A stretch of DNA of 64,000 bases. Source: Opitutaceae bacterium. GTDB lineage: Bacteria; Verrucomicrobiota; Verrucomicrobiia; Opitutales; Opitutaceae. The DNA lies in the NCBI GenBank assembly GCA_030693515.1, contig JAUYAK010000005.1:3739-67738 (forward strand), in the 5' to 3' direction. A program made the position numbers and the translations under genes. How positions within the stretch are numbered: position 1 is the first letter of the stretch; each line of letters begins with the position of its first letter. Shown one piece after another: positions 11,501 through 41,582 of this stretch. Below the pieces are notes generated by a model, which was not told where the DNA came from, searched no databases, and saw only the letters and a list, made by a program, of their open reading frames with translations.

Positions 11501-11623
11501 GTCCGCAACCTCCTCGATGCGGACGATCTTGAACCGATCCGGGCGAACCTCGGCGGCGGCGTGCTCGACTGGGCCCGCGGGGTCCCGCGGCAAATCGTCC
11601 TCAACACCACCCTTACGTTTTGA
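8564..11623 (+). CDS. TonB-dependent receptor-like outer-membrane protein
   Basis: ATG at 8564, 26 nt after sulfatase 3, with a signal peptide. A plug-like N-terminus (VELSPFIANAASDQGYVATSSLAGSRVNTPLKDIAAQIDV) is followed by a long beta-rich body. The C-terminal residue is Phe (…LNTTLTF). Confidence 0.85.
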   Translation: MKLPRPLIASLPRTSGAWLRPTPGFALLAAVFVAPLAAQVAPKPPPSPAVSAEIVELSPFIANAASDQGYVATSSLAGSRVNTPLKDIAAQIDVMTLDFLNDIGATTIEEAVAFSTNNGGANDQNTGPNAGITTTRASGRARGFDAITNSADFYATNLPSDLYNVERLTFANGPQSILFGLGNAGGAIDTATKRALFRSSNEVGLRADSNGSVRGTLDVNRVLVPKKLALRFVAVRNDGKNHVEDAFNRQTRAFGALTWKLTPTTTLRLAAEKSGQRASNASNFIAQDFVSPWVAAGRPLYDNSSGNAAITAAAFPLLNRNTNALRVYSYGGASPSVLIWNGSGLTRGPHQLAGAIDTRDASLIDNSIFPTDRDVRVGGRMNILHGTLLRGALEQKITNDLFVELGFNYESVSELLGGSFDNAESLNIFADPNRYLPGGTATVRQTALNPDAGRLYIESFPTGSEVRNLTKELRLTTSYEFDAQKHFTGIARHFGRHRLAGLVSQRIDEDRSQVSRGMVLGNPSFVTGDLLNNSRFIRSRFYLDPNGGSFTARALPGSAGGDSRLYGPWAFTDSVRNESFQATMFDHPAGRSSATGGSRKEITTGMLALQSFFLKDRLNIFAGRRIDQFKSFLIDPAALVRGDRVTPGDRQGLYTPLSGTGFSSTAALDDSTTTYSYGTVVHALSWLSVFGSRSNNTALPPGFLDPDNRLLPGISSEGHDVGFNIGLRQNAISLRVNFYEENQHNLIGDGQGVRNAAAVIEQRLRGTDRPAGIAAVPADGYDPVTRGDVYRSVEDKIGKGIDVTLVARVTGNWDLRIAGGKQQTRVFNKDLDFATWTARRLPVWQQFGGLGWDRVSISTSDPRTVQQYYDQAIAAEIVRQQLRNNLPRFRQREWRGSLFTNYRFSEGALKGLNLGGGIRWLDHTMIGLRQRTFPDGSRGDDVTQPIFGPSLFYVDVLLGYGGKTKLFGGRNLGWRVQLNVRNLLDADDLEPIRANLGGGVLDWARGVPRQIVLNTTLTF

Positions 11624-11663
11624 GTCGCCGGAGCGTCTCGCGCTTTCGTTCGTCTTAACGCTG

Positions 11664-13154
11664 ATGCGCTCATTGCCCCGCCGATTGCCGCTGCTGCTGT
11701 CGCTACTCCTGGCGCCTTTCGCCCTTCACCCCTGTTCCGCAGCGGAGCCGCCTCCCAACATTGTCTTCATCCTCGCCGACGACCTCGGTTGGAACGGCAT
11801 TGCCCCTTACGGCAACAAGGATGTGTCCACCCCGCACCTCGACCGGCTCGCGCGCGAGGGCATGACCTTCCACCGCGCCTACGCCGAGCCGCAGTGCTCG
11901 CCTACGCGCGGCGCTTTCTTCAGCGGCCAGTGGCCCGCGCGGACCGGCATGTTTGCCGTCACGCACGAGATGGATCCAGCGGCGGCGCCGCTCACACCGC
12001 CGCCGCACGCGATGGCGATGCCGCCCTCGACCGCCTCGCTCGCCCTCATGCTTCGCTCCGCCGGCTACACGACCGGGCTCAGCGGCAAGTGGCACATCGG
12101 CGAGGGCACCAACGCCGCCCCGCTCCGGACCCGCGAGGGCGGGAATTATTTCGACCGCTACGGTTTCGATTTCGTCGGCCAGGGCGCCAACGCCTCGCCC
12201 GAGAAGGACAAGTCCGTCGCCGGGATCACCGACGACCTCCTCGGCTTCATCGAGCGCAATCGCGGGCGCCCTTTCTTCGCCTATTTCTCCCATCAAGCAC
12301 CGCATACTGCGCTGGAACCGCCCAGTGCTTTGGTGGAGAAATATGTCTCCCGTGGCCTCAGGAAAAGCTCCACGCCAGAAACCATCTATGCCGAGCGCAC
12401 CACCGCCGACTACTATGCCACGATCGAGCACCTTGATACGCACATCGGGCGTGTCCTTGCCCTGCTCGACCGCCTCGATCTGGCGCAGAACACGGTCGTC
12501 GTTTTCACCTCCGACAACGGCGGCCTCAACCGCGCGGCCGACATGGCCCCGCTCCGCGGCAACAAAGGCATGCCCTACGAAGGCGGCGTGCGCGTGCCGC
12601 TCCTTGTGCGCTGGCCCGGCCCTGTCGCCGCCGGATCGTCCAACGCCGTGCCCGTCCACTTCATCGATTGGTATCCCACGTTCGCCGCGCTCGCCGCCGC
12701 GAAACTTCCCGCGGCCCAAAAACTCGACGGTGAGAATCTCGTCCCGCTTCTGACCGGCACGGGGCGCCCCGCGCGGGACACGCTGTATTGGCATGCCCCC
12801 ACCTACACCACGCCCTTCGGCCGCACGCCGAGCGCAGCGATCCTCCGGGGCGACTGGAAACTCATCCATTATTTCGGCGATTTCCTCGATGTCGCCGGTG
12901 CTGTGCCTGAGAACCAAGGGGCCTTCGGCAAGCTGATCCTCGGCGCCCGCACCGAACTCTACCACCTCGCCGTCGATCCTTCCGAGGCGCATGACCTCGC
13001 CGCGAAAAATCCGGCCAAGGCCGCCGAGCTGATGGCCGCGCTGAAAAAATTCTGGTCGGATACCAACGCCGCCCTGCCCGTGCCCAACCCGACCTACCGC
13101 GCCGATAATCCTGCTTGGTGGCAACGCGCCGCGGCCCCATCATCTCAAAAATAA
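11664..13154 (+). CDS. sulfatase 4
   Basis: ATG at 11664 with a signal peptide. Motifs [12 protein letters not shown] and [14 protein letters not shown]. Confidence 0.9.
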
Positions 13155-28252: not shown

Positions 28253-30366
28253 GGATTTGCTCCTTCGGTTGCGAGGGCGGCGCGCCGGGCGGTGCGGCCC
28301 GCAAGGACCGACTCGATCAGCAGGACGGCAAGCGTCGCCACGATAAACCAACGCCAAAGTTTCTGACGGCTCTCCGCCTCGATGCCTTGCAGCAGCGCCT
28401 TCTTCTCAGCCGGCACCGTCGCCTCCACCCTGCCCTTGGCCACGGGCACCCCGAGTTGCTCCAGCTCATCCGGCCCGAGGGGCGCGGTGCGACTCTCGTT
28501 GGCATCAAGGTTCACGGCGAAACGTTGCGGGCGAAGGCCGCCTGTCAGCTCGTAGATGCCCGGCTGCCCGGTCGCGGCAAACTCCGCCGCGCCCGCCGCC
28601 AGTGTCACCGCTGCGCCTGCCGGGCCGCGCACGGCCGTCGTCCCGCTGTCGGCCGACAGGGCCACACGGTCGCCCACGACGTGCTGCGTCGCAAAATTCG
28701 CCACCCCACCCGCCTGCTCCAGGAGCGACCACATGAGCGGCACAAATTTCGACGACACAGCGAGCTGGCTGTCGTCCGGCTGCCAGCCGCTCGCGAACGC
28801 GTAGATACGCCCGCGGCCGACCGGGACCTCGGCCACCGCCGGATCGCCGTGGTCGAACTTGGCGACCGTGCGCGCGCCCGCGACGCCGCTCAGGTCGAGC
28901 TTCCGGAATTTCCAGAACCGGATCTTGGTGAAGTCGCTGAACCGCGGGTCGGCAAACGCCGCGAAGAGCGGGTGCTGAAAATCGATCTCCGAGAACATCG
29001 CGTAGCTGCCCGCGCGGCCCTCCTCGACCGGCACGGGCTCGCGCCCGAGCAACGCGCCAAGCGTCGGCCCGATGCCGGGATTCCGCGCCACGACGATGAT
29101 GGTCTTTCCCGCCTGCGCCTGTTCGCGCAGGGCCGCGGCGGCCGCGGGTGAAAGGGCTTCGCTCACAAAGATGAGGCTCGCGGCCGCCACATCAGCCGGT
29201 GAAAGCGGGCCACCCGGCGCGACCGCCGTCACCTGCACGGCCACGCGCGGCGTCTCGGCAAACGCGCGGCGCAGGAAAAAGAGCGGCTGCGCCGGATCCT
29301 CCGCCACGTCGCCGCCGATCCAGAGGACGTTGGTGCGCTGCTGCGTGGGCGGGATGACGTAGGTGGTGTTGTCGAAGGCCTCGTCGTCGCCCGTGAGGGA
29401 GATTTGCTCCAGACCGGCGACGCCTTTCGGCACCGGCACGGCAAACACCCGGCTCTGCCCCGGCGGCACATACGCATCCAGCGCGGGCACGATAAATTCA
29501 GGGGCACCTCCGGTGGCGGCCGAGCGCGCCCAGCCGAGCTTGAACTGCTCGCGCGTGGAATCGGCGGCGTTGGTCACGCGCACGCGCACCGGCGCATCCG
29601 CCGCGCGCGTCGAGTCCGGCCCGCCGGCGACGATCTGCACGCCGGCATTGGTGGCCTGGCGGGCCTTCACCGGTTCGAGCGTGAGTTCCACGCCCTTCGG
29701 CCATTCGTAGGCCTGCAACGCGTCCAGCCGGCTACCCGCCTGAAGGTCGCTGATGAGCACGATGCCCCGGGGACCGACGGCGTTTTTGCCATCCTCGCCC
29801 TCGGCGAGGGCTTCGGCGGCGGTGACGAGCGCGTTGCCCAGGTGGGTGCCGGCCCACGAGGGCGAAAGCGCCGCCAGCCGGCCGACGGCCAAGGCGATCC
29901 GCTCGGCGGGCGCGGCGCGGTTCCAATCCTCAAACGACACCAGTGTCGTCGCCTTCTGATCGAAAGAAATGATCGCCACGTGATCGACGGGCGCGGCGCG
30001 GCGCAGGACCGCCTCGGCCCGGGCGCGCGCGGTGGCCCACACGCCCTCGCGGCGCATGCTGGCGCTGGTGTCCACGAGCACGACGGTGCGCCGCGGTTGC
30101 GCCGCCGTCGGATCATTGACCGGCGACTGCGTGAAGAAGGGGCGCGCAAAGCCGAGCGCGAGGAGCGCAAGCGCGAGACAGCGCAGGAGGAGCAGCAACC
30201 AGTGCTCAAGCCGCTGGCGCTTCGCGATACGCGGCGGGCTCGGCTGCAGGAACATCAGCGAGCTGAAGGCCGTGCGCTCACGCGTCGTGCGCCGCACGAG
30301 GTGGTAGATGATCGGCGCGGCGAGCGCGAGACCGCCGAGGAGGAAGAGCGGCGTGAGGAAGTTCAT
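28249..30366 (-). CDS. BatA-N (double-TM anchor) / von Willebrand factor A domain protein
   Basis: N-terminus MNFLTPLFLLGGLALAAPIIYHL...LEHWLLLLLRCLALALLALGFARP is the classic aerotolerance BatA N-terminal domain. VWA MIDAS start VVLVDTSASM. Confidence 0.85.
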   Translation of the reverse strand: MNFLTPLFLLGGLALAAPIIYHLVRRTTRERTAFSSLMFLQPSPPRIAKRQRLEHWLLLLLRCLALALLALGFARPFFTQSPVNDPTAAQPRRTVVLVDTSASMRREGVWATARARAEAVLRRAAPVDHVAIISFDQKATTLVSFEDWNRAAPAERIALAVGRLAALSPSWAGTHLGNALVTAAEALAEGEDGKNAVGPRGIVLISDLQAGSRLDALQAYEWPKGVELTLEPVKARQATNAGVQIVAGGPDSTRAADAPVRVRVTNAADSTREQFKLGWARSAATGGAPEFIVPALDAYVPPGQSRVFAVPVPKGVAGLEQISLTGDDEAFDNTTYVIPPTQQRTNVLWIGGDVAEDPAQPLFFLRRAFAETPRVAVQVTAVAPGGPLSPADVAAASLIFVSEALSPAAAAALREQAQAGKTIIVVARNPGIGPTLGALLGREPVPVEEGRAGSYAMFSEIDFQHPLFAAFADPRFSDFTKIRFWKFRKLDLSGVAGARTVAKFDHGDPAVAEVPVGRGRIYAFASGWQPDDSQLAVSSKFVPLMWSLLEQAGGVANFATQHVVGDRVALSADSGTTAVRGPAGAAVTLAAGAAEFAATGQPGIYELTGGLRPQRFAVNLDANESRTAPLGPDELEQLGVPVAKGRVEATVPAEKKALLQGIEAESRQKLWRWFIVATLAVLLIESVLAGRTARRAALATEGANP

Positions 30367-31322
30367 ACGGCGGCTCCTTTCGCGGCGCTGTTCGCGCGGC
30401 GCACGACCCGCCCGCGCCGCATCCGTGCCTGCAGGAATTCAAACAGCGCAATTTCGAGCGGCTGCGCCGTGGAGATCTGGTGGTAGCTCACGCCGAGCTT
30501 GCGGCAGATGGCTTGCAGGGCTTCGCCGTGGGCGCGGAAGCGCTTCATGTAGCCGTCGCGCGCCGCCGCCGGATCGATGTAAACGGTGCGCGCGGTCTCG
30601 ACATCCTCGAACAGCGCGGGAGCGTCGAGGCCGAGGTTGAGTTCCGCCGGATCGACGAGGTGAAACACGCTGAGCTCGTGACCGCCGGCCGCGAGCGCGA
30701 CGAGGCTGCGCTCCAGTTTGTCCAGCGGCGCGAGAAAATCCGAGATGAGCCCGACGAGCGCTCGTTTGCGGATGAGCCCGGCGATGCGCTCCAGCGGCGT
30801 CACCAGATCGGTGGCGTGGCCGCCCGCGGGTTTCTCCAGCGCGAGCATGAGCTGGCGCAGGTGGCCGAGGCGGTGGCGCGCCGGCAGATACTCGCGCACC
30901 TGCTCGTCGAAGGTCATCAGGCCCACCGCGTCGCCTTGCAGGTGGAGGAAGTAGGCCAGCGTGGCCGCGAGCGTGGCCGCATAGGCGGCCTTGGTGATGC
31001 CGCGCGAGCCGTAGTCCATCGAGCGGCTGAGGTCGGCGACGAGGTGGACGCGGAGGTTGGTCTCGTCCTCGTATTTTTTGATGAAGTAGCGGTCGCTCCG
31101 CGCATAGACCCGCCAGTCGAGGTAGCGCGGATCATCGCCGGGGCTGTATTGCCGGTATTCGGAAAACTCGACCGAGAAGCCGTGGTAGGGGCTCCGGTGC
31201 AGGCCGCTCCAAAAACCCTCCACGACCGCCCGCGCCCGCAGCTCAAGGCTGCGAATCATCATCAACGCCTGCGGGTCGATGAGCTTCGCCGCAGCGAGGG
31301 CGGGATTGGAGGTGGCGGCCAT
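30363..31322 (-). CDS. DUF58 domain protein
   Basis: SPYHGFSVEFSEYRQYSPGDDPRYLDWRVYARSDRYFIKKYEDETN is the DUF58 signature. ATGA overlap with the downstream gene (30363-30366). Confidence 0.9.
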   Translation of the reverse strand: MAATSNPALAAAKLIDPQALMMIRSLELRARAVVEGFWSGLHRSPYHGFSVEFSEYRQYSPGDDPRYLDWRVYARSDRYFIKKYEDETNLRVHLVADLSRSMDYGSRGITKAAYAATLAATLAYFLHLQGDAVGLMTFDEQVREYLPARHRLGHLRQLMLALEKPAGGHATDLVTPLERIAGLIRKRALVGLISDFLAPLDKLERSLVALAAGGHELSVFHLVDPAELNLGLDAPALFEDVETARTVYIDPAAARDGYMKRFRAHGEALQAICRKLGVSYHQISTAQPLEIALFEFLQARMRRGRVVRRANSAAKGAAV

Positions 31323-31334
31323 GGGGGCGAAAAA

Positions 31335-32387
31335 CTAGGCGGTCTTCACCGGCACCGTGGCGCCGGCCACGAGCCGCTTGATCACGTCGTCGACCTTGGT
31401 GCCTTCGGCCTCGGCGCGGTAGTTGAGGAGGATGCGATGCCGTAGCACCGGGACGGCGAGCGCCTGGATGTCCTCGATCGTCACGTGGGCGCGGCCGCGC
31501 AGGAGCGCGCGGGCCTTGGCCCCGAGGATGATGAACTGCCCGGCGCGCGTGCCCGCGCCCCAGCTCACCCACTCGTTGACGAAGTCCGGCACCCCGGGCT
31601 GATGCGGGCGGGATGACGCCACGAGCTGCACCGCATAGCGCACCATCTCCTCGGCGACGGGCACCTTGCGCACGAGATCATGGAAGGACTGCACATCCTC
31701 GCCGGTGAACAGCGCCTCGATGGCTGCGGGCCGGCCCGCGGTCGTCTGCGCGACGACCTTCACCTCGTCGTCGATCGGCAGGTAGTCGATCACGACGTTG
31801 AACATAAAGCGATCGAGCTGCGCCTCCGGGAGCGGATAGGTGCCCTCCATCTCGATTGGATTCTGCGTGGCGAGGACGAAGAAGGGCTCCTCGAGCGGAT
31901 GGCGCACGCCCGACGCCGTCACCTGGTGCTCCTGCATCGCCTCAAGCAAGGCCGCCTGCGTCTTCGGCGGCGTGCGGTTGATTTCGTCGGCGAGGAGCAT
32001 GTTGGCGAACACGGGGCCGCGAACAAAGGTGAGCTGGCGTCCGCCCTCCGGCGTGTCCTGGAGAATCTCCGTGCCGGTGATATCGGCCGGCATGAGGTCG
32101 GGCGTGAACTGGATGCGCTGGAACTTCAGGTGGAAGATCTGCGCGATGGATTTCACGAGCAGGGTCTTCGCGAGACCGGGCGCGCCCGTGATCAGGCAGT
32201 GGCCGCCCGCGAGCAGCGCGATCAGGATCTGTTCGATCACGTCCTTCTGGCCGATGATCACCTTGCCGAGCTCGGCCTCGATGCGGGCGCGGCCGGCGAT
32301 GAGACGCTCGGCGGCGGCGCGCTCGGCCTCGAAAGGACTCGCGGGTGGAATCGGGGGCGGGGTGGCGGTGGTGGGGGCGATGCTCAT
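31335..32387 (-). CDS. MoxR-family AAA+ ATPase
   Basis: Walker A GAPGLAKT, Walker B LLADEINR, and typical MoxR length (350 aa). Directly upstream of DUF58. Confidence 0.92.
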   Translation of the reverse strand: MSIAPTTATPPPIPPASPFEAERAAAERLIAGRARIEAELGKVIIGQKDVIEQILIALLAGGHCLITGAPGLAKTLLVKSIAQIFHLKFQRIQFTPDLMPADITGTEILQDTPEGGRQLTFVRGPVFANMLLADEINRTPPKTQAALLEAMQEHQVTASGVRHPLEEPFFVLATQNPIEMEGTYPLPEAQLDRFMFNVVIDYLPIDDEVKVVAQTTAGRPAAIEALFTGEDVQSFHDLVRKVPVAEEMVRYAVQLVASSRPHQPGVPDFVNEWVSWGAGTRAGQFIILGAKARALLRGRAHVTIEDIQALAVPVLRHRILLNYRAEAEGTKVDDVIKRLVAGATVPVKTA

Positions 32388-32397
32388 GAGAGAGGGA

Positions 32398-32429
32398 CTA
32401 AGGGATCAAAAGACGAAGGGACCAAAAGA
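32398..32429. repeat. tandem 16-mer x2 in the moxR 5' leader region
   Basis: ctaagggatcaaaaga (32398-32413) is followed by cgaagggaccaaaaga (32414-32429), 13/16 identical, immediately upstream of the moxR ATG (32387, - strand). Confidence 0.8.
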
Positions 32430-32460
32430 TGGGAGGACGCGGGACGGAGCCGAAGGTTTG

Positions 32461-32496
32461 TGGTCCTTTGGTCACTTGGTCCATGGTCCGTTGGTC
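32461..32496. repeat. five phased TGGTC (GACCA on the mRNA strand) repeats, 7-8 nt period
   Basis: TGGTC occurs at 32461, 32469, 32477, 32484 and 32492, just downstream of the DUF4159-B stop codon (32506-32508). Confidence 0.8.
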
Positions 32497-32505
32497 GCTT
32501 AGTCA

Positions 32506-33483
32506 TCAGTGCGTCATCAGATAAAAGATCAGGTTCACGCCGATCGGATAGGAGACGCGCTCGGAGAAGACGGCGAAGTAGTCGGGCTGTTCGCCCTCGC
32601 GCTCCCAGCCGTCGGTGATGTCGGTGTTGTGAAAGGCGATGGCCATGATGCGGCCCTTGTCGTCGTTGAGCGTGCGCACGCTGACCTTTTGCGAGCCCTC
32701 GCCCCGGTCGATCTGGATGGGGGAATCCGGGTCGTTGGGATCGTGGTCGCGTTTCCAAAACTGCATGGTCGGAACCTGGATTCGCTGCATGGGCCCCTTC
32801 AAATCGAAGACGCAGTGGAAGAGCGGATGATCGAAGGTGAGCTCGGTCCATTCGCGCTCGGGGAGCACTTTCTTCATCTGCGCGGCGAAGCCAGCCCACT
32901 CGGTGCTATTCCAGAAATCGATCACGGCGAGGACCCCGCCGGCGAGGAGGTATTTGCGCAGCCCCGCGACTTCCGGCTCCTTGAGGAGCATGTAGCCGGG
33001 ATGCTCCATGAGGAGAAACGGGTAGTTGTGCAGGTCGGGATTGTTGAGCTTGAGCACCCGGCCCTCGGGGTCCGTGCGCATCGAGGTCATTTGCTGGAGG
33101 CGATAGGAGAGATTGAGATCGGCGTCGGGGAAATCGACCCACCAGCCGAGCCGCCGGCCGCGACCGTAGCCGGGCGCGAGGTTGGGGCCGACCTTGAAAA
33201 TCGCCCGGGCAAAGGTGAACACGTCCTTCTCGAAGCCGCGCGGATTTTCCCACATCGGCGTGCCGGTGCTGTGCGAGGCGACTTCGCGGGCCGTCTTGAC
33301 CTGATCCTCGTCGATCACGCCGCTGCCCTCGGTGCGCACGAGCGAGCCGCCGAGATCGTTTTCGTTGCCCCAGCCGCCCCAGCCGGGCGGAGGTCCGCCG
33401 CTGCCGCCCCGCGGCGGACGCACCGGCTGCGCCACGAGCGCGGCACAGAGCCCGGCGAAGAGGAGGTGAACGCGGCAGATCAT
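32506..33483 (-). CDS. DUF4159 domain protein (copy B)
   Basis: Signal peptide. Blocks WENPRGFEKDVFTFARA, DADLNLSYRLQQMTSMR and GGVLAVIDFW. Clear paralogue of the upstream gene. Confidence 0.8.
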   Translation of the reverse strand: MICRVHLLFAGLCAALVAQPVRPPRGGSGGPPPGWGGWGNENDLGGSLVRTEGSGVIDEDQVKTAREVASHSTGTPMWENPRGFEKDVFTFARAIFKVGPNLAPGYGRGRRLGWWVDFPDADLNLSYRLQQMTSMRTDPEGRVLKLNNPDLHNYPFLLMEHPGYMLLKEPEVAGLRKYLLAGGVLAVIDFWNSTEWAGFAAQMKKVLPEREWTELTFDHPLFHCVFDLKGPMQRIQVPTMQFWKRDHDPNDPDSPIQIDRGEGSQKVSVRTLNDDKGRIMAIAFHNTDITDGWEREGEQPDYFAVFSERVSYPIGVNLIFYLMTH

Positions 33484-33485
33484 GG

Positions 33486-34358
33486 TCAGTGGGTCATCGC
33501 GTAGAAGATGACGTTGATGCCGAGGGGATACGCGATCTTCTCGGAGAAGTTCTTGAAGTAGTATTCATACTCGCCCTCGCGCTCCCACCCGTCGCCGTTG
33601 TCGGTGTTGTGCGCGGCAAAGACCATCATGCGGCCCTTGTCGTCGTGAATGGCGCGATGATGGACGGTGCGCGTGTCGCCGTCGTGGTTTTCCCAGGTGA
33701 CCCCCGTATGCTGGCTCTCCTCGCCGGTGCGGACGTTGGGCACCTGGCCCTTGCTCTTGATTTCGAAGACGCAGTGGTAAACCGGATGATCGAGCGACAG
33801 TTCCCCGAACGAACGATCAGGAAAGACGCGCTTCATCTCGCGCTCCACATTTCTCCAAGCCGAGTCACCCCAGAAGTCGTCGAACATGAGGAAGCCGCCG
33901 TTGAGGAGGTATTTTCGCAGCGCCACGACCTCCGCGTCGCTGAACGAGAGGCTGCCGGGCTCGACAATGTAAATCCAAGGAAACGAACCGAGGTCGTCAT
34001 CGGTGAGGTTGATGAAACGCCCGTCCGGGTTGGTGCGGATCGAGGTCATCTGCTGCAAGCGATATGAGAGGTTGAGATCGCTGTCCGGCGTGTCCGTCGT
34101 CCAGCCCGGGCCGCGCATGCGGTAGTAGCCGCCGCCGCTGTTGTAGCGGGCCCGGGTGAAGGTGAAGACATCCTTCTCGAAGCCGCGGGTATTTTCCCAC
34201 GTGGGTGTGCCGGTGCTGTTAGTCGGTATTTCCCGCGGAGTGCGCACGGTGTCCGCGTTCACGCCGCCCTCGGTAAAGGAACGGCCGAAACGTCGCTGAG
34301 CCAGGAGGAGGCCGGAGCAAAGCACCGCAAACGCGACGAAAAGGGCGAGTCGCTTCAT
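33486..34358 (-). CDS. DUF4159 domain protein (copy A)
   Basis: Signal peptide. Blocks WENTRGFEKDVFTFTRA, DSDLNLSYRLQQMTSIR and GGFLMFDDFW. ATGA overlap with the TPR gene (34355-34358). Confidence 0.8.
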   Translation of the reverse strand: MKRLALFVAFAVLCSGLLLAQRRFGRSFTEGGVNADTVRTPREIPTNSTGTPTWENTRGFEKDVFTFTRARYNSGGGYYRMRGPGWTTDTPDSDLNLSYRLQQMTSIRTNPDGRFINLTDDDLGSFPWIYIVEPGSLSFSDAEVVALRKYLLNGGFLMFDDFWGDSAWRNVEREMKRVFPDRSFGELSLDHPVYHCVFEIKSKGQVPNVRTGEESQHTGVTWENHDGDTRTVHHRAIHDDKGRMMVFAAHNTDNGDGWEREGEYEYYFKNFSEKIAYPLGINVIFYAMTH

Positions 34359-36937
34359 GGCTGCTTGAGCGGGACCGGCACCGCCTCCAGCGGGGCCTGG
34401 GTGCGCGCGCGTTCGAGGTCGAGGAGGAGCCGGAGAGCGGCGCGGTAGCGCGGCGTGTCCTCGAGCGCGAGCAGGACATGGTGGCGGGCCTCGCCGTCAT
34501 CGCCGCGCTTGTGCAGCAGGCTCGCGAGTTGGAAATGGCCATCGGCGCGCTCCGGCACATCAAGCTGGAGGAGCGTGCGCCAGGCGACCACGGCCGCCGA
34601 GTCGTCGCCACTGCCAGCGGCGGCTTGGGCGAGATAGCGGTAGGGCGCGGGCACGAGCGGGTTGACGGCCAGGTAGCGCTCAGAGTTTCGCCGCACGGTC
34701 GCCCAGTCCTGCTCGGCCGCCGCCAGTTCCATAAGGCGGGCGTAGGCCTCGGGCGCCTCGTCGTCGGCGGCGGCCCACGCCTCGAGCACGCGGCGCTCGC
34801 CCACCGTGTCGCCCAGCGCCTTGAGCGCCGAGACGAGCGCGCGGAAAGCGGAATCGCCGCCCTTCTGCCGCGGATAAAGCTCGATCAGGCGCTCAAGCGG
34901 GCCTCGGGCGTCGGCCCAGTTCTGCTTCTCCATCGCACGCTGCGCCTCGTGGCGCAGGAACCAATAGTTGTCGGGGTGTTTCCGGCCCCACTCGGCCAGC
35001 TTGGCGTCGGCCCCGGGCGCGAGCAGTTCGGGGTCGATGCGCGTCCAATCGAGGCCCGGGGCGAGCTTCTCGGCGCGCTCCCGCGCGTAGGCCGCAAAGT
35101 CCTTCTCCAGCTCCGGCATCGGGATGGTGTGCTTGGCGAGGGCGACGTTGATTTCCATCCCGGTGCGCAGATCGGCGAGGATGCCGCGGATTTTTTCGAG
35201 GCCGAAGCGCCCCACGATGAACTCCACGACCAGCGCCGATTGCAGGTAGGCAAACTGCAGGTGGCGCGCCGTCTTGGGCGCGAGGAAGGCCGCGCTCAGG
35301 CGGCTCACCGGCACCAGATCGTCGCCGGCGAGCATCTCCCGGTATTTCGCGTCCAGCCGCATGCCCCATGATGGATCGGCCTGCCATTCCTCGTAAACGG
35401 AGATGCCTTCGCTCAGCCAGCGCGGCATTTTATTCTTCGTCATTTGCAGCGTCACGACATGGCAGAACTCGTGCCACAGGACGGACTCCCAATTCGTGGG
35501 CGAGCTGGCGGTCGCCGGGCTGTTGGCGGTGACGACTCGCCCGAAACACACGCCGAGGAACCCCGACACGTCGGGCAGCCCGAAGGTGCGCACGGCAAAG
35601 TCGCGCTGGTCCGCGAAAATCTCGATGTAGGTGGGCTTGGCGAGTTCGGCGCCGTATTTCGTGACGAGCACATCCTTGGCGCGGCGCAGCAGGGCGAGCA
35701 CGCGCGGACCATAGATTGCGACCTCGGGCGCGGCCATGCGGATGACGAAATCCTCGGTCTGCATCGCGGCATACTTCTTCATCGTGTCCTGGAGCGTCAC
35801 GAGGTTGAAGGCTTCGACATCATACTCGTCCCGATCGTGCACGGCCTGGGCGAGCGCCCAGCCCTCCTTATCCTCGCCGAGCCGGAGCAGATCGCTGGCG
35901 AGCTGGGCCATGGCCGGCAGGTAGGAAGGATCAGCCTCGCGGGCGCGGCGCTGGTAGGCGGCACCCTCGGCAAACCGGTATTTGGCGGAGAGCTTCTCGC
36001 CGATGAGATGATCGACCCGCGGATTGCGCGGCCAGGAGCTGAGCGCCCGATCGCGCGCGAAGGCCTCCCCTTCGGGATCGTTCTTCAGGTGCGCGATCAC
36101 CGCGCGATAGGCCCAGGCGTCGGGTTGCACGGGATTCACCGCGATGATCTCGTCGAGGACCTTGCCGGCCTCGGCGTAGGATTCGGAATCGATGTGATGG
36201 CTGACAAACTGGAGCAGCGTCGGCACGTGGCGCGCATTGACCTTGAGCGCCGCCTGGAGCGACGCGATCGCCACCGACCGATCACCACCGGCGTAGGCGC
36301 GACCGCGGCCACTGAGCAAATCCGGATCCTCGGGCAACTGCTTCAGGCCCTCCTCAAAAGCCTTGGCCGCGAGCGCATAGTCGTGCTTTTCCAGCGCGAG
36401 TTCGCCCCGCGCGCGATAGACCTCGCGGAGCTTGGGGTCGGCCTTCTGCACGGTCGCGAAGACTTTTTCGAGCACGTCCTTGGGGTCGTAGCCGGGCACG
36501 AGCAGCGCGGCGCGGCCGAACACCAGGAAATCCGCCGGCGCACGGTATTGCCACCCGCTGTCGCGCACCGCGGCGATGATGTCTTTGACGAACCGCGCCG
36601 CCTCCTCGGGCCGCCCATTGGCCAGGGCCACCTCACGCGCCTGCCAGCGCAGGCGGATGCTGCGGGTGTCGCGCAGGAGCGCGGCCTTCATCACCGTGTC
36701 CGCCTCGGGATAGCGGCCGACCTCAAGCAGGGCGCGCGCGAGCAGCATCGACCACTCGGTCTGGCCGGGGCCGTCGCCGATCTCACCTTGGGCAAGCTTG
36801 ATGACGGCGGCATGGTTGCCGGCGAGGAGGGCGCGCTGGGCCTCGGCGACCTCCGCGCCTTGCGCAGTGGCGACCGAAACCGAAAGCATCGCCAGCAGCG
36901 CGACCAGACGCGAAGGGAAGCGGCGGAGAAAATTCAT
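34355..36937 (-). CDS. TPR-repeat protein with internal peptidase-MA-like (HExxH) domain
   Basis: ATG at 36937 (MNFLRR..., signal peptide). The ORF-track start at 36949 is TTG. Zinc motif LWHEFCHVV followed by WLSEGISVYEE. TPR-like helical repeats lie on both sides. Confidence 0.8.
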   Translation of the reverse strand: MNFLRRFPSRLVALLAMLSVSVATAQGAEVAEAQRALLAGNHAAVIKLAQGEIGDGPGQTEWSMLLARALLEVGRYPEADTVMKAALLRDTRSIRLRWQAREVALANGRPEEAARFVKDIIAAVRDSGWQYRAPADFLVFGRAALLVPGYDPKDVLEKVFATVQKADPKLREVYRARGELALEKHDYALAAKAFEEGLKQLPEDPDLLSGRGRAYAGGDRSVAIASLQAALKVNARHVPTLLQFVSHHIDSESYAEAGKVLDEIIAVNPVQPDAWAYRAVIAHLKNDPEGEAFARDRALSSWPRNPRVDHLIGEKLSAKYRFAEGAAYQRRAREADPSYLPAMAQLASDLLRLGEDKEGWALAQAVHDRDEYDVEAFNLVTLQDTMKKYAAMQTEDFVIRMAAPEVAIYGPRVLALLRRAKDVLVTKYGAELAKPTYIEIFADQRDFAVRTFGLPDVSGFLGVCFGRVVTANSPATASSPTNWESVLWHEFCHVVTLQMTKNKMPRWLSEGISVYEEWQADPSWGMRLDAKYREMLAGDDLVPVSRLSAAFLAPKTARHLQFAYLQSALVVEFIVGRFGLEKIRGILADLRTGMEINVALAKHTIPMPELEKDFAAYARERAEKLAPGLDWTRIDPELLAPGADAKLAEWGRKHPDNYWFLRHEAQRAMEKQNWADARGPLERLIELYPRQKGGDSAFRALVSALKALGDTVGERRVLEAWAAADDEAPEAYARLMELAAAEQDWATVRRNSERYLAVNPLVPAPYRYLAQAAAGSGDDSAAVVAWRTLLQLDVPERADGHFQLASLLHKRGDDGEARHHVLLALEDTPRYRAALRLLLDLERARTQAPLEAVPVPLKQP

Positions 36938-37088
36938 TCGGGGAGGCAAAGCCGGCGGGGAAGACGCAGACGGCGTGAAAGAGTGATGCGAGGCACTTTG
37001 CTTTTCTCAAGCCTGACAGTGAAAGAGTTATTGCCAGACGATCTCACGCCGCCAAGTGGTCGCGGCGTTCGCGTCGCATCGCATTCGC

Positions 37089-37099
37089 GCTGGCTGCCC
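37089..37099. repeat. 11-bp direct repeat of the tRNA-Gln 3' end (candidate distal att remnant)
   Basis: CTGGCTGCCCG at 37089-37099 is identical to 41508-41518, which covers the last 10 nt of tRNA-Gln (including CCA) plus 1 nt. Same orientation. The two copies bracket the lower-GC islet. Confidence 0.4.
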
Positions 37100-37270
37100 G
37101 GCGGGGATAAAATCGAGAACTTTTGAGGCGAATCAAACGCTTGGGGACGTCACAGGACTTAGCAGAGGGTTGATGAAGCCGCCACGGCCGTTACGGACCT
37201 CGAACGGTCTCCGGAGCTAGCGAAAATCTCAGTCCACCCTGTGGCGGAATCGATGGAAACGAGATGCTCG

Positions 37271-37304
37271 CTTATTTCCCTATTTAGATGTTGATGGAAA
37301 TAAG
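37271..37304. promoter_or_regulatory. inverted repeat just upstream of fic (possible operator)
   Basis: CTTATTTCC (37271-37279) and GGAAATAAG (37296-37304) are separated by 16 nt of AT-rich spacer, about 20 nt upstream of the fic ATG. Confidence 0.3.
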
Positions 37305-37324
37305 TCGCCTGCTTGTTTCCACCC

Positions 37325-38515
37325 ATGAAAACAAGCCCCGCGCCCGCGCCGGCGGGACGCTGGATCAAAACCTTGGCGGGCTACCGAGCCTTCCGGCCCT
37401 CTCCGCTACCACCGGCCATTGCATGGACGCCGCAATTGGTCCGCGTCCTTTCGCAGGCGGATCGCTTGCTGGGACGTCTCGCGGGTGAAGGACGACGACT
37501 CCCTAATCCTCATTTGCTCATACGACCGTTCGTCTGTCGCGAAGCCGTTTACTCCAGCCGGATCGAGGGCACGCAAGCTACATTGGGCGAATTGCTGGCC
37601 GCGGAGGCCGGAGCGATTCCCGAACGCAGCCCGGAAGAATTGCGCGAAGTGGGCAATTACGTCGCGGCTTTGGAGCACGGCATGAAACGACTGAAGACGC
37701 TGCCGCTTTCGCTCCGCCTGGTTCGCGAGCTGCACCAGAAACTAATGACTGGAGTCCGGGGTGACCATGCGACGCCCGGAGAATTTCGCCGGACCCAGAA
37801 TTGGATCGGCCGTCCAGGTTGCACGCTTGCGGATGCGTCCTACGTGCCGCCCCCGCCTGACGATCTCCTGGAGCACCTCGGCCACTGGGAGGATTTCTTG
37901 CACGATGAAACGATTCCTCCGCTCGTGCATGCCGCCTTGATGCACTACCAGTTCGAAGCCATTCACCCGTTCATTGATGGCAACGGTCGCGTCGGACGAT
38001 TGCTCATCACCCTTTCCCTGTGTGCGCGCGACGTGCTGCCCGATCCGCTCCTGTATCTGTCGGCCTTTTTTGAAGCGACGAGAAAGGACTATTATGAAGG
38101 TCTGCGCGGGATCACGGAGCGGGGCGATTGGACAGGTTGGATCGAATACTTCCTCAACGGCGTGGCTCGTCAGTCGGAAGATGCCCTGAGTCGCGCGGAA
38201 CGGATCAACCAGCAGCTGGCCACTTGGCGAGAAGACTTCGCGGGGGGCGGCTCGAAGGTTCCGCTGCAACTCATCGACCTCATCGGGGCCAATCCCTTCC
38301 TCACCCCGCGTGAGACCGAGCGCCGGTTGGGCGTGGCCTACAACACCGTGATGCGTGCCATCATCGCATTGGAAGCCGGTGGTGTTTTAGCCAAGGTGGG
38401 CGAAGGCCAGCGCGACCGCGTTTTTTGCGCCCGTGCGATTCTCGACATTCTGGATGAGCCGGCCCGCTTGGTCCCGGAACCTCCCTCGACGCCTCATCGG
38501 AAAAGCCGCGGATAA
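37325..38515 (+). CDS. Fic-family protein (Fic_N + Fic core + C-terminal wHTH), predicted autoinhibited AMPylase
   Basis: Canonical Fic motif HPFIDGNGRVGR. N-terminal inhibitory-helix motif SSRIEG, i.e. (S/T)xxxE(G/N). ATG at 37325 (the ORF-track start at 37313 is TTG). Its stop TAA shares one nt with the next ATG (TAATG at 38513-38517). Confidence 0.9.
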   Translation: MKTSPAPAPAGRWIKTLAGYRAFRPSPLPPAIAWTPQLVRVLSQADRLLGRLAGEGRRLPNPHLLIRPFVCREAVYSSRIEGTQATLGELLAAEAGAIPERSPEELREVGNYVAALEHGMKRLKTLPLSLRLVRELHQKLMTGVRGDHATPGEFRRTQNWIGRPGCTLADASYVPPPPDDLLEHLGHWEDFLHDETIPPLVHAALMHYQFEAIHPFIDGNGRVGRLLITLSLCARDVLPDPLLYLSAFFEATRKDYYEGLRGITERGDWTGWIEYFLNGVARQSEDALSRAERINQQLATWREDFAGGGSKVPLQLIDLIGANPFLTPRETERRLGVAYNTVMRAIIALEAGGVLAKVGEGQRDRVFCARAILDILDEPARLVPEPPSTPHRKSRG

Positions 38516-40989
38516 TGGACCCATCGCAGCGGCAACAACGACTGAACGATCTCCGCCAAAAACTGGCGGCGCTCACGACCGAGGTCGTGAAAATTGAGGA
38601 CGAACTCGCGAACTTGGAAGCCGACAGACAACTCCACCTCGGCGCGACGCCTGCTTCTGCGATTCAAATCCCTCGCACGCCGGCAGAAAAGGTCGCCCTT
38701 TTTCTGGATCTGTTTGGCACCCGGCGTTCGGTCTATCCTAAACGATGGGAGAATAACAAAGCGGGAAAGAGCGGCTATTCGCCGGCGTGTGACAACGACA
38801 GTTTCGCGAATCGGCAAAGTGGTATCTGCCGGAAGCCGAAGGTGAAATGCTCGGACTGTCCACATCAACGGTTTCCTCCGCTCGACGAGCGAGCCGTAGA
38901 ATCCCACCTGCGAGGTGAGCAGACACTCGGCGTGTATGCCATCGGCACTGACGATACCTGCCGGTTTCTCGCGGCCGACTTTGATGGGGAAGGTTGGCGC
39001 GATGACGTGCTGGCCTACCGCGAGGCGGCCGAGCGGGTCGGAATCGCGGTCGCAATCGAGCGATCCCGGTCGGGCAACGGCGCGCATGCTTGGATCTTTT
39101 TCGCCGAGCCCGTGCCTGCCGCCATGGCGCGGAAGCTGGGAACGATTCTGGTGGCGAAAGCCTCAGCTTTGCGGCCGACCTTGGGGCTGGGCGCGTATGA
39201 TCGACTGTTTCCCAATCAAGATGCCTTGCCGGTCGGCGGCTTCGGAAATCTGATCGCGCTACCTCTGGCAAAGGCTCCGCGGCAGAATGGCAACACGCTT
39301 TTCGTGGACCCTCGAATGGTGGCTTTCGAGGACCAATGGTCGTATCTAGCAGGACTCCCCCGACTGAGTCGTGAAAGCTTGGACCGAACGCTCGCCAGAG
39401 TTGCGCCCGTCAGACCGTTGGCGTCACCGGTTCAAGCCGCAGAAGCATCCGAGCACCAGCAGGACTTCGCTCTGCAAAACGACGCGATGGTGCTGGAGCT
39501 GTCGCATCCGCAAATTCGCAGTGGAATGATCTCGGGCGAAGTGACGGTGCGGCTCGATGCGCATATTCATGTGCCCCGATCACTGCCAATACCGGTGCTG
39601 GCAGCGTTACGGAGGCTCGCGACGTTTCCCAATCCGGTCTTTCACGAGAAACTGCGACTGCGGTTCGCTACGTTTGATACGCCGCGATTTCTCTTCGCTG
39701 GCGAGTGGCACGCCGACCGGCTCGTGCTACCGCGCGGGGTGTTGGACCAGAGCCTTTCACTGTTGGAGACGGCTGGTGCCACGGTCGTCGTGCAGGATGC
39801 GCGAGAGGCCGGAACTCGCGTGCCGTGGAAATTCCAGGGTGAGTTGCGGGAAGGTCAGCAGAAGGCGGTGCGCAAAATGCTCGCGGAAGACAACGGTGTG
39901 TTGTGCGCTCCGCCGGGTGCGGGAAAGACGGTCATGGGCTGCGCGTTGATCGCACGAGCCCGCACCTCGGCGCTCGTGCTGGTGCATCGCGCGGTGCTGG
40001 TGGAGCAGTGGCGGGAGACGGCCATGCAATTTCTCGGATTGAAACGAAAGGAGATCGGTCTCTGGCGCGGGCCTACCCCGCGGCTCACCGAACGATTCGA
40101 CATTGCCATGCTGCCGTCGCTGATTCGTGTGGAAAATATCGCGGCAGCACTGGCCGGCTACGGAGTGGTCATCGTCGACGAATGCCATCATGTGCCCGCC
40201 GCGTCTTTCGAGATGGTGGTGAAGGCCTGCCCCGGCCGGCGGGTTTACGGACTCACGGCGACGCCGAAACGTAAGGATCGGCTGTAGAAATTGCTCTTCG
40301 CCCAATGCGGACCGATCCGGCACACGATGGTCGATGCTCCGACTGATGAAGTGCGGACGGTCAAAGTTCGCCACACCACCGTGACTCTGCCACCCGATGC
40401 TGGGCCGCGACCACCGATCCACGTGGTGTGGGAGGCGTTGGTGCAGGATGAAAGCCGGATGAACGTGATCGTCGCCGATCTGTTGACGTGCGCGGCGTCG
40501 GGGCGTTCGCCGCTCGTTCTGGCGGACCGCAAGGTCTACTTGGAACGGCTGCAAGCGGCGTTCATCGCGCAGGCCACCGGCGTCACGTGTCATCGACTGG
40601 ACGGGCAGCTGGGAAAGAAGTCCCGGAACGAAGTGCTGCGGCAGATCGGCGAGCACTACAATGAGCAGAAACCGTTCGTGCTGTTCGCAACGGCGTCGCT
40701 GATCGGCGAGGGGTTCGACCTTCCGCGTTTGGATACTTTGGTGTTAGCGATGCCACTTTCGTTTAAGGGGCGGCTCGTGCAATACGCCGGCCGGCTTCAT
40801 CGGCGGCATGAAGCCAAAGGCGCTGCGATGATCTTTGACTATCTCGACCACAACCACGCCATCACGAGTGCGATGTTTCGACGACGACTCGCCGGCTACA
40901 GTGAACTTGGGTATGTGGTCGAGATGCCGCAGAGCGAAGCTGCACCATGGTTCGGAGACAACCCAGCTGAGTCCGGGCGCACGAAATAG
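38515..40989 (+). pseudogene. archaeo-eukaryotic primase (AEP)-like domain fused to SF2 (DExH) helicase, interrupted by a single in-frame TAG at 40285-40287
   Basis: N-terminal coiled coil and a Cys cluster (C..C..CxxC). AEP motifs are DFD (FLAADFDGEGW), GNGAHAW and a downstream acidic motif. Helicase motifs are I APPGAGKT, II IVDECHH and III TATP. After the stop, reading continues in the same frame (RL*KLLFAQCGPIRH) into RecA2 motifs (ATASLIGEGFDLPRLD, QYAGRLHR). The second ORF (40291-40989) has only a TTG 'start'. Confidence 0.8.
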
Positions 40990-41005
40990 CCTCATCAAAA
41001 CTGCC

Positions 41006-41383
41006 ATGCCCATACCGAAGCGAAACGACGAACGGGAAGAACGCATCACCATGGAGATTGTCGTCGATTGCTACAATGAGAGCGAAGCGTGGTCGGGTTG
41101 GTGGTGCTATCTCGACAGCAAGCTCTCGTGTCCATTTGTGGCGGAATGTATCCGCGAGCGACGGGGGTCGCCGTTGAAAATCGGCGAGCGTGTGACCGTC
41201 ACCGCCATGCTCGATGACCATGAGGCGGCGGATTCGCTGGGCGAGATGCAGGTGGAGATCGAATGGCAGGGGCGGACCCTCGGCGTGCCCTTGACACAGC
41301 TCAGAGGCGTCGAAGTAAACGAGGGGACGGCGGAAGCCATCGCGGACTGGCACTATTGGGTGGCGCAAGGACGGCAGTTCTGA
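41006..41383 (+). CDS. small conserved protein (family often auto-annotated 'calcium-binding protein'), third gene of the islet
   Basis: ATG at 41006, 16 nt after the helicase stop. From recollection, MEIVVDCYNESEAWSGWWCYLDSKLSCPFVAEC...WQGRTLGVPLTQL...AIADWHYWV matches a widespread roughly 120-aa family. Confidence 0.65.
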   Translation: MPIPKRNDEREERITMEIVVDCYNESEAWSGWWCYLDSKLSCPFVAECIRERRGSPLKIGERVTVTAMLDDHEAADSLGEMQVEIEWQGRTLGVPLTQLRGVEVNEGTAEAIADWHYWVAQGRQF

Positions 41384-41508
41384 TTCGGCCGAGTCAAATG
41401 CGCGCCCGGGGAACTCGAAAATTTGACCATCCTTGGGGGCATTCGCAACCCACGGTCATCCGCTCGTTCCCGATTTGCTGCACCGCAGTTCGCACCCACG
41501 CCAGTCAC

Positions 41509-41582
41509 TGGCTGCCCGACATGGATTCGAACCATGACTAGGCGAGTCAAAGTCGCCTGTGCTACCATTACACCATCAGGCA
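41509..41582 (-). tRNA. tRNA-Gln (anticodon UUG)
   Basis: Hand-folded 74-nt cloverleaf. Acceptor TGCCTGA/TCGGGCA (U1-A72), D stem GTGT/GCAC, anticodon stem GGCGA/TCGCC with loop CTTTGAC, T arm CATGG-TTCGAAT-CCATG, discriminator G and encoded CCA. Confidence 0.9.

Follow-up and report, generated by a model that had tools for sequence, protein, structure and literature searches.

Analysis of a 64,000-nt stretch of an Opitutaceae genome (contig JAUYAK010000005.1; the whole of this stretch is referred to as the window) uncovered a compact islet at positions 37089-41582 that holds three co-directional open reading frames (ORFs) and one tRNA. The ORFs encode a Fic protein, a fusion of an archaeo-eukaryotic primase (AEP) domain to a superfamily 2 (SF2) helicase, and a small protein of the CcbP family. 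We favour, with confidence that stands about evenly balanced, the view that the islet is an acquired 4.4-kb cassette at tRNA-Gln carrying a modular defence-type operon that has decayed here, and not a fixed three-part machine. For this genome the message is a modest one, that of an accessory cassette in decay, its central gene already dead. The AEP/SF2-helicase fusion family to which this gene belongs is large and spans many phyla, with Fic as its most frequent operon partner, an association that has arisen independently several times; the recurrence of Fic and of other toxins of the restriction-operon type as neighbours yields a concrete, testable hypothesis for the role of the family. What looks new is the recurrent Fic/AEP-helicase operon and the pseudo-tRNA-bounded cassette, the Fic defence family being known already and the AEP-helicase family having been flagged only computationally.

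The contigs and loci compared with the window are labelled L001-L213. L089 (JGI 3300044611 Ga0453738_0005477) and L090 contain all three genes, the helicase there being an uninterrupted protein of 824 aa; the triad, which an earlier, sequence-only reading of this DNA had picked out, thus recurs in other contigs. In L005-L009, Fic and the helicase share the same overlapping junction and the CcbP-like gene is missing. In L001 and L002 the helicase is accompanied by the CcbP-like gene, Fic is replaced by an AlbA_2/HATPase_c_4 gene in the opposite orientation, and homology to the window begins exactly at the helicase start codon. The remaining pair occurs in L136 (3399-5372), where a 523-aa Fic protein is followed after a 12-nt gap by a CcbP-like gene without the AEP-helicase. 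L005 and L089 keep the TAATG junction between fic and the helicase gene, and where the third gene follows, it does so after 16-22 nt. On a neighbour-joining tree the triad was seen only in one narrow Opitutaceae subclade. The earlier idea that the three genes form one unit therefore holds in that they make up a discrete acquired unit, and fails in that the unit is not obligate, each pair occurring without the third. Judged from these distributions, the helicase forms the hub and the constant core of this cassette lineage, Fic joins it repeatedly but optionally in an operon, and the three genes are no obligate system.

A bounded cassette with a dead central gene

The three ORFs lie on the + strand with operon-like spacing (Table 1), just as the sequence-only reading had described them. 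The TAA of fic (38513-38515) shares its final A with the ATG of the helicase gene (38515-38517) in the context ggaTAATGgac, and 16 nt separate the helicase stop from the start of the small third gene. As also stated earlier, the islet lies against the 3′ end of tRNA-Gln: the tRNA gene is on the − strand and is thus oriented with that end towards the third gene. The companions reported as missing are indeed missing, with no integrase, transposase, restriction or methylase gene inside the cassette or within ~15 kb on either side. The lowered GC content was borne out as well, the value of 0.608 over 37091-41508 being the minimum among the 4.4-kb stretches of the window (mean 0.665, s.d. 0.020), and GC at third codon positions is 0.69-0.75 in the islet versus 0.82-0.86 in flanking genes. 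Low GC as proof of foreign origin is weakened, and GC alone is insufficient, because a second lower-GC stretch at 59200-64000 (GC 0.57-0.63) carries ordinary housekeeping genes, namely those for S-adenosylhomocysteine hydrolase and SAM synthetase (ahcY/metK), along with a hybrid histidine kinase. Scans of the islet for sigma-70 promoters and terminators gave nothing exceeding chance, and an Rfam scan returned the tRNA as its sole match.

The profile searches proposed in the sequence-only reading identified all three proteins, by Fic_N and Fic, by AEP-TOTE, ResIII and Helicase_C, and by Calci_bind_CcbP, respectively. The second gene is arranged as an N-terminal coiled coil, a 4-Cys element with four invariant cysteines, the AEP domain and the SF2 helicase. 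Its homologues are uninterrupted proteins of ~824 aa that are up to 90% identical to the frame in the window. Here, a single in-frame TAG, already noticed earlier, falls between helicase motif III and lobe 2, at a codon that is GAG or GAA in relatives and specifies a Glu invariant across a 26-sequence alignment. The TAG is repeated in L088 (Logan SRR13727538), an independent assembly of a separate read set that is 100% identical to the window over 33006-41535. No further lesion is visible in the helicase frame, and the inactivation therefore looks recent. The catalytic signatures previously recognised in the protein are intact as sequence: D155 and D157 of the DxD motif, SGNGAH, the Walker A motif APPGAGKT, DECH, TATP and QYAGRLHR are all present, all at invariant columns of the alignment. 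Motifs I, II, III and VI are all encoded, but the TAG parts RecA lobe 1 from lobe 2, and the SF2 motifs that orthologues such as P0002 carry on both lobes of one polypeptide are not joined in one polypeptide here. The GAG-to-TAG change identifies the helicase as a pseudogene in this genome, where at most fic, and perhaps the gene for the small protein, is still functional.

On its left side, the islet opens with a degenerate partial copy of tRNA-Gln, covering the 3′ portion, that forms a direct repeat with 41508-41526. This tRNA-like repeat was rejected as stand-alone evidence within the window, and the argument rests on its conservation across loci. A pseudo-tRNA-Gln element brackets orthologous or related cassettes in L001, L089, L090, L091 and L009, in two repeat variants (L001 6233-6437 and 10994-11187; L089 4638-4692 and 8968-9023; L009 500-553), and the elements sometimes stand as tandem pairs ~150 nt apart on both sides of related cassettes. 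Homology of the window to the orthologous cassette of L089/L090 begins precisely at the left repeat, and blastn homology of L001 extends to window position 41531, through the spacer between the CcbP-like gene and the tRNA. Comparison of the window with L089 gives 93.9% identity for the repeat and 86.9% for the genes; being better preserved than its cargo, the repeat looks like a site that still serves recombination and not like a scar in decay.

A tRNA-Gln(UUG) gene also lies downstream of the Fic and helicase unit, in the same orientation, in L005 and L009. The closest sibling genome, L213 (GCA_016794785.1), in which the PQQ protein is 90% identical, keeps the right flank and tRNA-Gln, and an IS3-type insertion sequence (IS; rve, HTH_21) follows the tRNA 3′ end at 11444-12808 in the place of the cassette. 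Because this IS is carried at the same tRNA-Gln 3′ end, the site is an insertion hot spot. L213 lacks the cassette but has the IS and a different far flank, and a clean empty site was not recovered. No cognate integrase was found in the cassette, in ~15 kb around it, in L001 or in L089. The right flank of L009 showed no orthology to the window, and a serine recombinase encoded there was considered as the cassette integrase and found unconvincing, with an IS630-type transposase beside it. Like tRNA-flanking genomic islands, the islet lies at a tRNA 3′ end, has a partial tRNA copy at its far end and is atypical in composition; unlike them, it is only 4.4 kb long and integrase-less, its repeats are kept better than its cargo, and the repeats are tandem in related cassettes. 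On the strength of its boundaries and its homologues, the islet is a discrete, horizontally acquired accessory insertion at a tRNA hot spot.

Table 1 Features of the islet (coordinates are those of the window)
Feature	Position	Strand	Details
Left boundary repeat, degenerate tRNA-Gln 3′ part (TGGCTGCCCGGCGGGGATAAAATCGAGAACTTTTGAGGCGAATCAAACG)	37089..37142	+	Acceptor 3′ strand to anticodon loop; ~50 nt, att-like
Palindromic site 1, GGAAACGAG-N7-CTTATTTCC	37255..37279	none	Upstream of fic
Palindromic site 2, GGAAATAAG-N7-CTTGTTTCC	37296..37320	none	Ends 4 nt before the fic ATG
Fic ORF	37325..38515	+	396 aa; ATG start, alternative start TTG at 37313
AEP-helicase frame	38515..40989	+	824 codons, single in-frame TAG
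AEP domain	~38686-39387	+	Pfam AEP-TOTE
Helicase lobe 1	~39841-40272	+	RecA lobe 1
In-frame TAG for invariant Glu	40285..40287	+	Between helicase motif III and lobe 2
Helicase lobe 2	~40474-40806	+	RecA lobe 2
CcbP-like ORF	41006..41383	+	125 aa; starts 16 nt past the helicase stop
Spacer from the CcbP-like ORF to the tRNA	41384..41508	+	Aligns with the matching spacer of orthologous cassettes
tRNA-Gln(UUG)	41509..41582	−	ARAGORN; Rfam tRNA 61.6 bits; right boundary of the cassette

Directly beside the cassette, the left flank (30363-36949) holds a cluster of MoxR (AAA_3), DUF58, two DUF4159 and TPR-Peptidase_MA_2 genes, and the right flank carries PQQ propeller, MFS and MacB-type ABC genes. 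The flanks scanned consist of ordinary chromosomal genes, and the window is not a remnant of a prophage or of an integrative and conjugative element, a case that the sequence-only reading had named as one that would count against its own interpretation.

Relationships of the three proteins

The AEP half of the second protein matches Pfam PF22548 (AEP-TOTE) at 1e-85 over model positions 1-229 of 230, and the helicase half matches ResIII and Helicase_C. Residues D155, D157, H191, D229 and D236, which are invariant, all occur in the window protein, and these motifs assign the AEP half to the archaeo-eukaryotic primase (PrimPol) superfamily, with catalysis predicted. Inter-domain confidence is low in the AlphaFold model of the entire protein (predicted TM-score 0.39), and domain-level matches alone were used. 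Among solved structures, the CRISPR-associated Prim-Pol CAPP (7nqd, 7nqf, 7p9j) is closest to the AEP half in both fold and sequence (target-normalised TM-score ~0.8, r.m.s.d. 3.4 Å, phmmer 4e-12), and the catalytic DxD and His are shared. In contrast to CAPP, the islet protein has no CRISPR-cas genes nearby, is fused to an XPB-like helicase, and contains the additional 4-Cys element and N-terminal coiled coil. For the helicase half, archaeal and eukaryotic XPB/Rad25 (6p4f, 2fwr, TFIIH; Foldseek E 1e-17) come closest, XPB being a dsDNA translocase that opens DNA bubbles. Identity to them is only ~18-21%, and the islet helicase is bacterial, island-borne and primase-fused, and it has no Bax1/TFIIH partner.

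The sequence-only reading had connected this architecture with the label "TOTE conflict system". TOTE stands for TPR, OB, TBP and Effector, and such systems combine TPR-OB (cold-shock) and TBP genes with an effector, according to a preprint (bioRxiv 10.1101/2025.09.15.676423) that cites Aravind, Iyer et al. 2022 for them. A canonical TOTE system with the AEP-helicase as its effector would fit the match to PF22548, a family named after TOTE, and the fusion of that domain to an SF2 helicase. However, the islet has the effector-type protein alone: the cassette, its flanks, the families listed for the immediate neighbours of 77 relatives and the annotated recurrent clusters yielded neither a TPR-OB nor a TBP gene. 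The nearby TPR protein is the Peptidase_MA_2 protein without OB/CSD, which belongs to the MoxR/DUF58/DUF4159 cluster beyond the cassette boundary. Canonical membership was rejected on the missing TPR-OB and TBP genes and is in our estimate extremely unlikely. The Pfam name designates a domain and should not be taken as a system call.

The Fic protein matches Pfam Fic_N (7e-25) and Fic (1e-21). Both elements ascribed to it earlier are intact: the core motif HPFIDGNGRVGR at residue 214 (H214PFIDGNGRVGR) agrees with the pattern HxFx(D/E)GNGRxxR, and the inhibitory-helix motif SSRIEG at residue 77 (S77xxxE81G82), within Fic_N, agrees with (S/T)xxxE(G/N). The PADLOC SoFic model matches residues 19-377 of 396 at 1e-116, and chains of SoFic and EcSofic-like proteins in the PDB match at ~1e-34. 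Against the NCBIfam equivalog model of Shewanella SoFic the protein scores 157 bits, and since this is under the cut-off of 550 it is not an orthologue of Shewanella SoFic; these matches identify it as a member of the wider family, a SoFic-type class II Fic AMPylase. Work on Escherichia coli homologues has shown that de-repression makes Fic proteins of the SoFic family toxic and that these proteins confer phage resistance, and SoFic acts as a single-gene defence of the abortive-infection type (PMC12249575). The islet protein has the architecture of SoFic defence proteins (PADLOC PDLC03963; 3eqx, 3zcn, 9tc4, 9vjc), with the SxxxEG-containing Fic_N, the HxFxDGNGRxxR core and a C-terminal domain. 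It differs from them in being translationally coupled to a primase-helicase and in lacking a following 47-aa AS1-like antitoxin ORF, the next gene overlapping the fic stop. Of the proposal that the islet represents an uncharacterised system, the part concerning Fic falls away, this being a member of a validated defence family, and the part concerning the pairing stands: the literature searched contained no description of a Fic/AEP-helicase operon or system or of a pseudo-tRNA-bounded cassette.

Two palindromic sites precede fic (Table 1), and both fit GGAAAYRAG-N7-CTTRTTTCC. They are kept in five loci (the window, L005, L008, L009 and L089), where the rest of the intergenic DNA does not align. 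The palindromes may serve as an operator for the Fic C-terminal domain, for which they are good candidates, or may form an RNA hairpin.

The third protein is acidic (pI 4.6). It matches Pfam Calci_bind_CcbP (PF11535) at 5e-33 over model positions 1-105 of 105 and is ~36% identical to the Anabaena Alr1010/CcbP structures 2k2v, 2p0p and 3urg (2e-16 to Alr1010 chains), matches that make it a true homologue of the CcbP family. Anabaena CcbP, a Ca2+-binding regulator of heterocyst differentiation, has the same length; the islet protein differs from it in carrying Ser38 in the column of Alr1010 Asp38 (S, G, N, D or E among homologues) and in a family context of mobile elements and conflict genes. 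Asp38 is a ligand of the stronger Ca2+ site of CcbP, and its mutation abolishes function, according to the statement in PMC10574481 that cites Hu et al. 2011. Because Ser replaces this residue, Ca2+ binding by the islet protein is not to be assumed. The label "calcium-binding protein" is probably misleading for PF11535 members outside cyanobacteria.

In order to view the association from the CcbP side, 80 metagenomic CcbP-family loci (L133-L212) were surveyed, 56 of which had usable upstream sequence. The helicase was present at a single one of these 56 (L163), and CcbP as a dedicated helicase partner was rejected on this count. The neighbours at CcbP loci are mostly IS66 transposases (18 loci), PRiA4_ORF3 (14), resolvases (13), DruA-like proteins (5) and SNF2/DUF3670. 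With a custom hidden Markov model, CcbP-like genes were found to adjoin the helicase in the window, L001, L031, L034, L037, L041 and L078, a set that includes a subfamily only ~22% identical to the islet protein. From its distribution, the CcbP-like protein travels promiscuously with mobile elements and has teamed up with the helicase on several occasions.

A downstream gene string is shared by L034 (10427-11442), L037 (5516-8404) and L041 (10334-11453), consisting of a divergent CcbP-like protein (~120 aa) followed by an uncharacterised protein of 260-440 aa. In L037 the string continues with a DUF6880 protein, and DUF6880 is also found in L030 and L033.

The distributions of Fic and CcbP bear on the proposal of the sequence-only reading that Fic, the AEP-helicase and the small protein are interdependent components of an obligate defence system. 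Tight operon spacing, conservation in L089 and L090 of the triad with its helicase undamaged, and the separate ties of Fic and of the CcbP-like protein to the helicase in several clades would all agree with it. We nevertheless hold it to be very unlikely: every pair is found without the third gene, the whole triad was seen only in its one Opitutaceae subclade, helicases are nearly absent from the CcbP loci surveyed, ~90% of helicase loci have neither partner, and SoFic works alone (PMC12249575).

Recurrent neighbours of the helicase family

A scan of species-representative genomes found more than 590 helicase relatives, and 80 loci from many phyla were analysed; neighbour families were obtained by running Pfam on the best upstream ORF at each of 77 loci and by clustering ORFs across loci. 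At E ≤ 1e-30 the family comprises at least 2,172 clusters at 50% identity. Fic is the commonest immediate upstream family (8 of 77 loci), followed by AAA_14/DUF4143 (4), AlbA_2 (2), Gp49 (2) and single cases of RhuM, AbiEii, HepT and PIN. Downstream neighbours include SNF2 helicases, PIN, AbiEi, Eco29kI, D12 methylase, HipA and RES. An ORF with the Fic motif is adjacent, upstream and co-directional in the Opitutaceae group, in L048, L065, L067, L071 and L076, and in the IMG/VR contig L119, and among the 12 Fic-motif ORFs within 4 kb of a helicase, 9 occupy this slot. In a neighbour-joining tree built from 98 helicases, the loci linked to Fic are scattered over at least five positions and those linked to CcbP over at least five different ones. 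The Fic partners have at least two architectures; the distant ones are 480-500 aa long and carry a C-terminal Fic domain. The comparison of gene neighbourhoods that the sequence-only reading had called for thus supports the adjacency of Fic and helicase, in at least five clades, among other neighbours belonging to toxin-antitoxin, abortive infection (Abi) and restriction-modification (R-M) families. Coupling of Fic to the PrimPol-helicase is plausible.

Other proteins recur beside the helicase. A conserved protein of ~181 aa with a weak DUF6155 match adjoins it in L032, L049, L053, L054, L062, L063, L070 and L086, and at some of these loci a RhuM-family gene precedes, a possible further partner module. 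In L052, L077 and L080 an 829-aa SNF2-family helicase adjoins the AEP-helicase, with an overlap or a gap of ≤55 nt in L077 and L080.

Conversely, the three genes might be unrelated accessory genes that piled up at the tRNA-Gln hot spot with no functional link. The IS in L213 and the differing cargo in L005 and L009 show how readily the tRNA-Gln 3′ flank takes up DNA, and the neighbours of both the helicase and the CcbP family are highly variable, as such an accumulation would lead one to expect. This account is quite unlikely in view of the overlapping stop and start codons and 16-nt spacing, which are kept at 75-87% DNA identity, and of the movement of the cassette as a unit between its repeats. 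It also does not sit well with the way Fic repeatedly takes up the position next to the helicase, co-directional with it, in at least five clades, or with divergent CcbP-like subfamilies (~22% identity) that both directly adjoin helicases.

Defence and mobile-element readings

Several lines of evidence suggest a defence role for the favoured modular operon. The neighbours of the helicase family are mostly toxin-antitoxin, Abi and restriction genes, no full-length helicase relative was found in 50,697 GenBank phage records, and the motor is an XPB-like SF2 helicase and not one of superfamily 3 or 4 (SF3/SF4). Abi toxins are known to be embedded in restriction operons, as with PrrC within EcoprrI. 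Fic, RhuM, AAA_14-DUF4143 and AlbA_2 nest in type I R-M operons and also occupy the slot upstream of the helicase; the likeness of the islet to operons of the PrrC/EcoprrI type is one of analogy only.

In the working model that we infer for this operon, Fic would be held inactive by its own inhibitory helix and would probably autoregulate the operon, its C-terminal DNA-binding domain attaching to the twin palindromes before the start codon. The XPB-like motor would load on dsDNA and open or track foreign or replicating DNA, where the CAPP-like PrimPol would then prime DNA synthesis and so derail replication of the invader. The upstream toxin would act as a coupled second, abortive layer that responds to the state of the motor, and the slot it occupies would be variable, filled by Fic here and elsewhere by AAA_14-DUF4143, AlbA_2, RhuM, AbiEii, HepT or PIN. 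The CcbP-like protein would be an optional passenger, or a modulator of either partner.

A number of observations weigh against the modular defence operon. Within the window alone the match of the left repeat is not significant, several chance matches scoring higher, and the palindromes show nearly no two-sided covariation, their few variants being G-U compatible. The neighbour calls depend on crude ORF picking, ~90% of helicase loci have no Fic, and no partner is universal; the coupling of Fic and helicase may be mere co-residence in islands. PADLOC offers no model for the AEP-SF2 helicase beyond a generic CRISPR-associated PrimPol match, and no experimental study of any AEP-SF2 helicase was found in the literature. 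Full-length relatives at ~40% identity occur in 97 plasmid records, most of them of large conjugative plasmids, where they adjoin tyrosine-recombinase trios and strawberry-notch, DUF736, ArdC-like and HipA genes. They are also present on 29 IMG/VR contigs, of which 13 share an upstream DUF3307 gene, 16 have integrase-like ORFs and 11 have excisionase-like helix-turn-helix (HTH) ORFs. Such settings accord with a mobile-element function just as well.

These last observations form the core of a serious, if somewhat unlikely, rival, namely that the islet is a decayed small integrative element in which the primase-helicase was a replication or establishment enzyme, Fic an addiction-type toxin and the CcbP-like protein an anti-defence passenger. 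Fusions of PrimPol and helicase are classic replication proteins of plasmids and satellites. The tRNA-flanking site with its att-like repeats, the company that the plasmid-borne and IMG/VR relatives keep, the IS66 transposases, resolvases and PRiA4_ORF3 that mostly accompany the CcbP family, and the serine recombinase and IS between helicase and tRNA in L009 are all what such an element would leave behind. Yet no integrase, excisionase, Rep or partition gene is found in the cassette, L001, L089 or L090, the GenBank phages hold no full-length relative, the neighbours across 77 chromosomal loci belong to the toxin, Abi and R-M classes instead of being mobility genes, and the helicase is of the SF2/XPB-like type where replicative primase-helicases usually have SF3 or SF4. 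The sequence-only reading had named a replication primase-helicase of a mobile element as the finding that would undo its proposal; for the window this is not borne out, since it contains no prophage or integrative and conjugative element, although the ~40%-identity relatives do sit on conjugative plasmids and integrase-bearing elements. The defence and mobile-element readings are not exclusive, because defence genes ride on such elements.

The modular defence operon can also be extended into a single joint reading, unlikely as a whole, of a two-layer anti-invader system. In it the motor-primase would attack or sense foreign DNA, and a blocked motor would release the upstream toxin, whether Fic or one of its substitutes. 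The integrase-less cassettes would recombine at conserved 50-nt pseudo-tRNA-Gln sites, and the CcbP family, of which only the role of a Ca2+ buffer in cyanobacteria is known to date, would provide a modulator borne on mobile elements.

Among the IMG/VR contigs, L099-L112, L121 and L122 (GC 0.40-0.48) encode AEP-helicases of ~960 aa within a conserved co-directional gene string. A DUF3307 membrane protein gene lies directly upstream, an excisionase-like HTH_17 gene belongs to the string and integrases are nearby; these contigs look like integrative elements and not like typical phages. Across the IMG/VR contigs, most of the remaining neighbours are small uncharacterised proteins.

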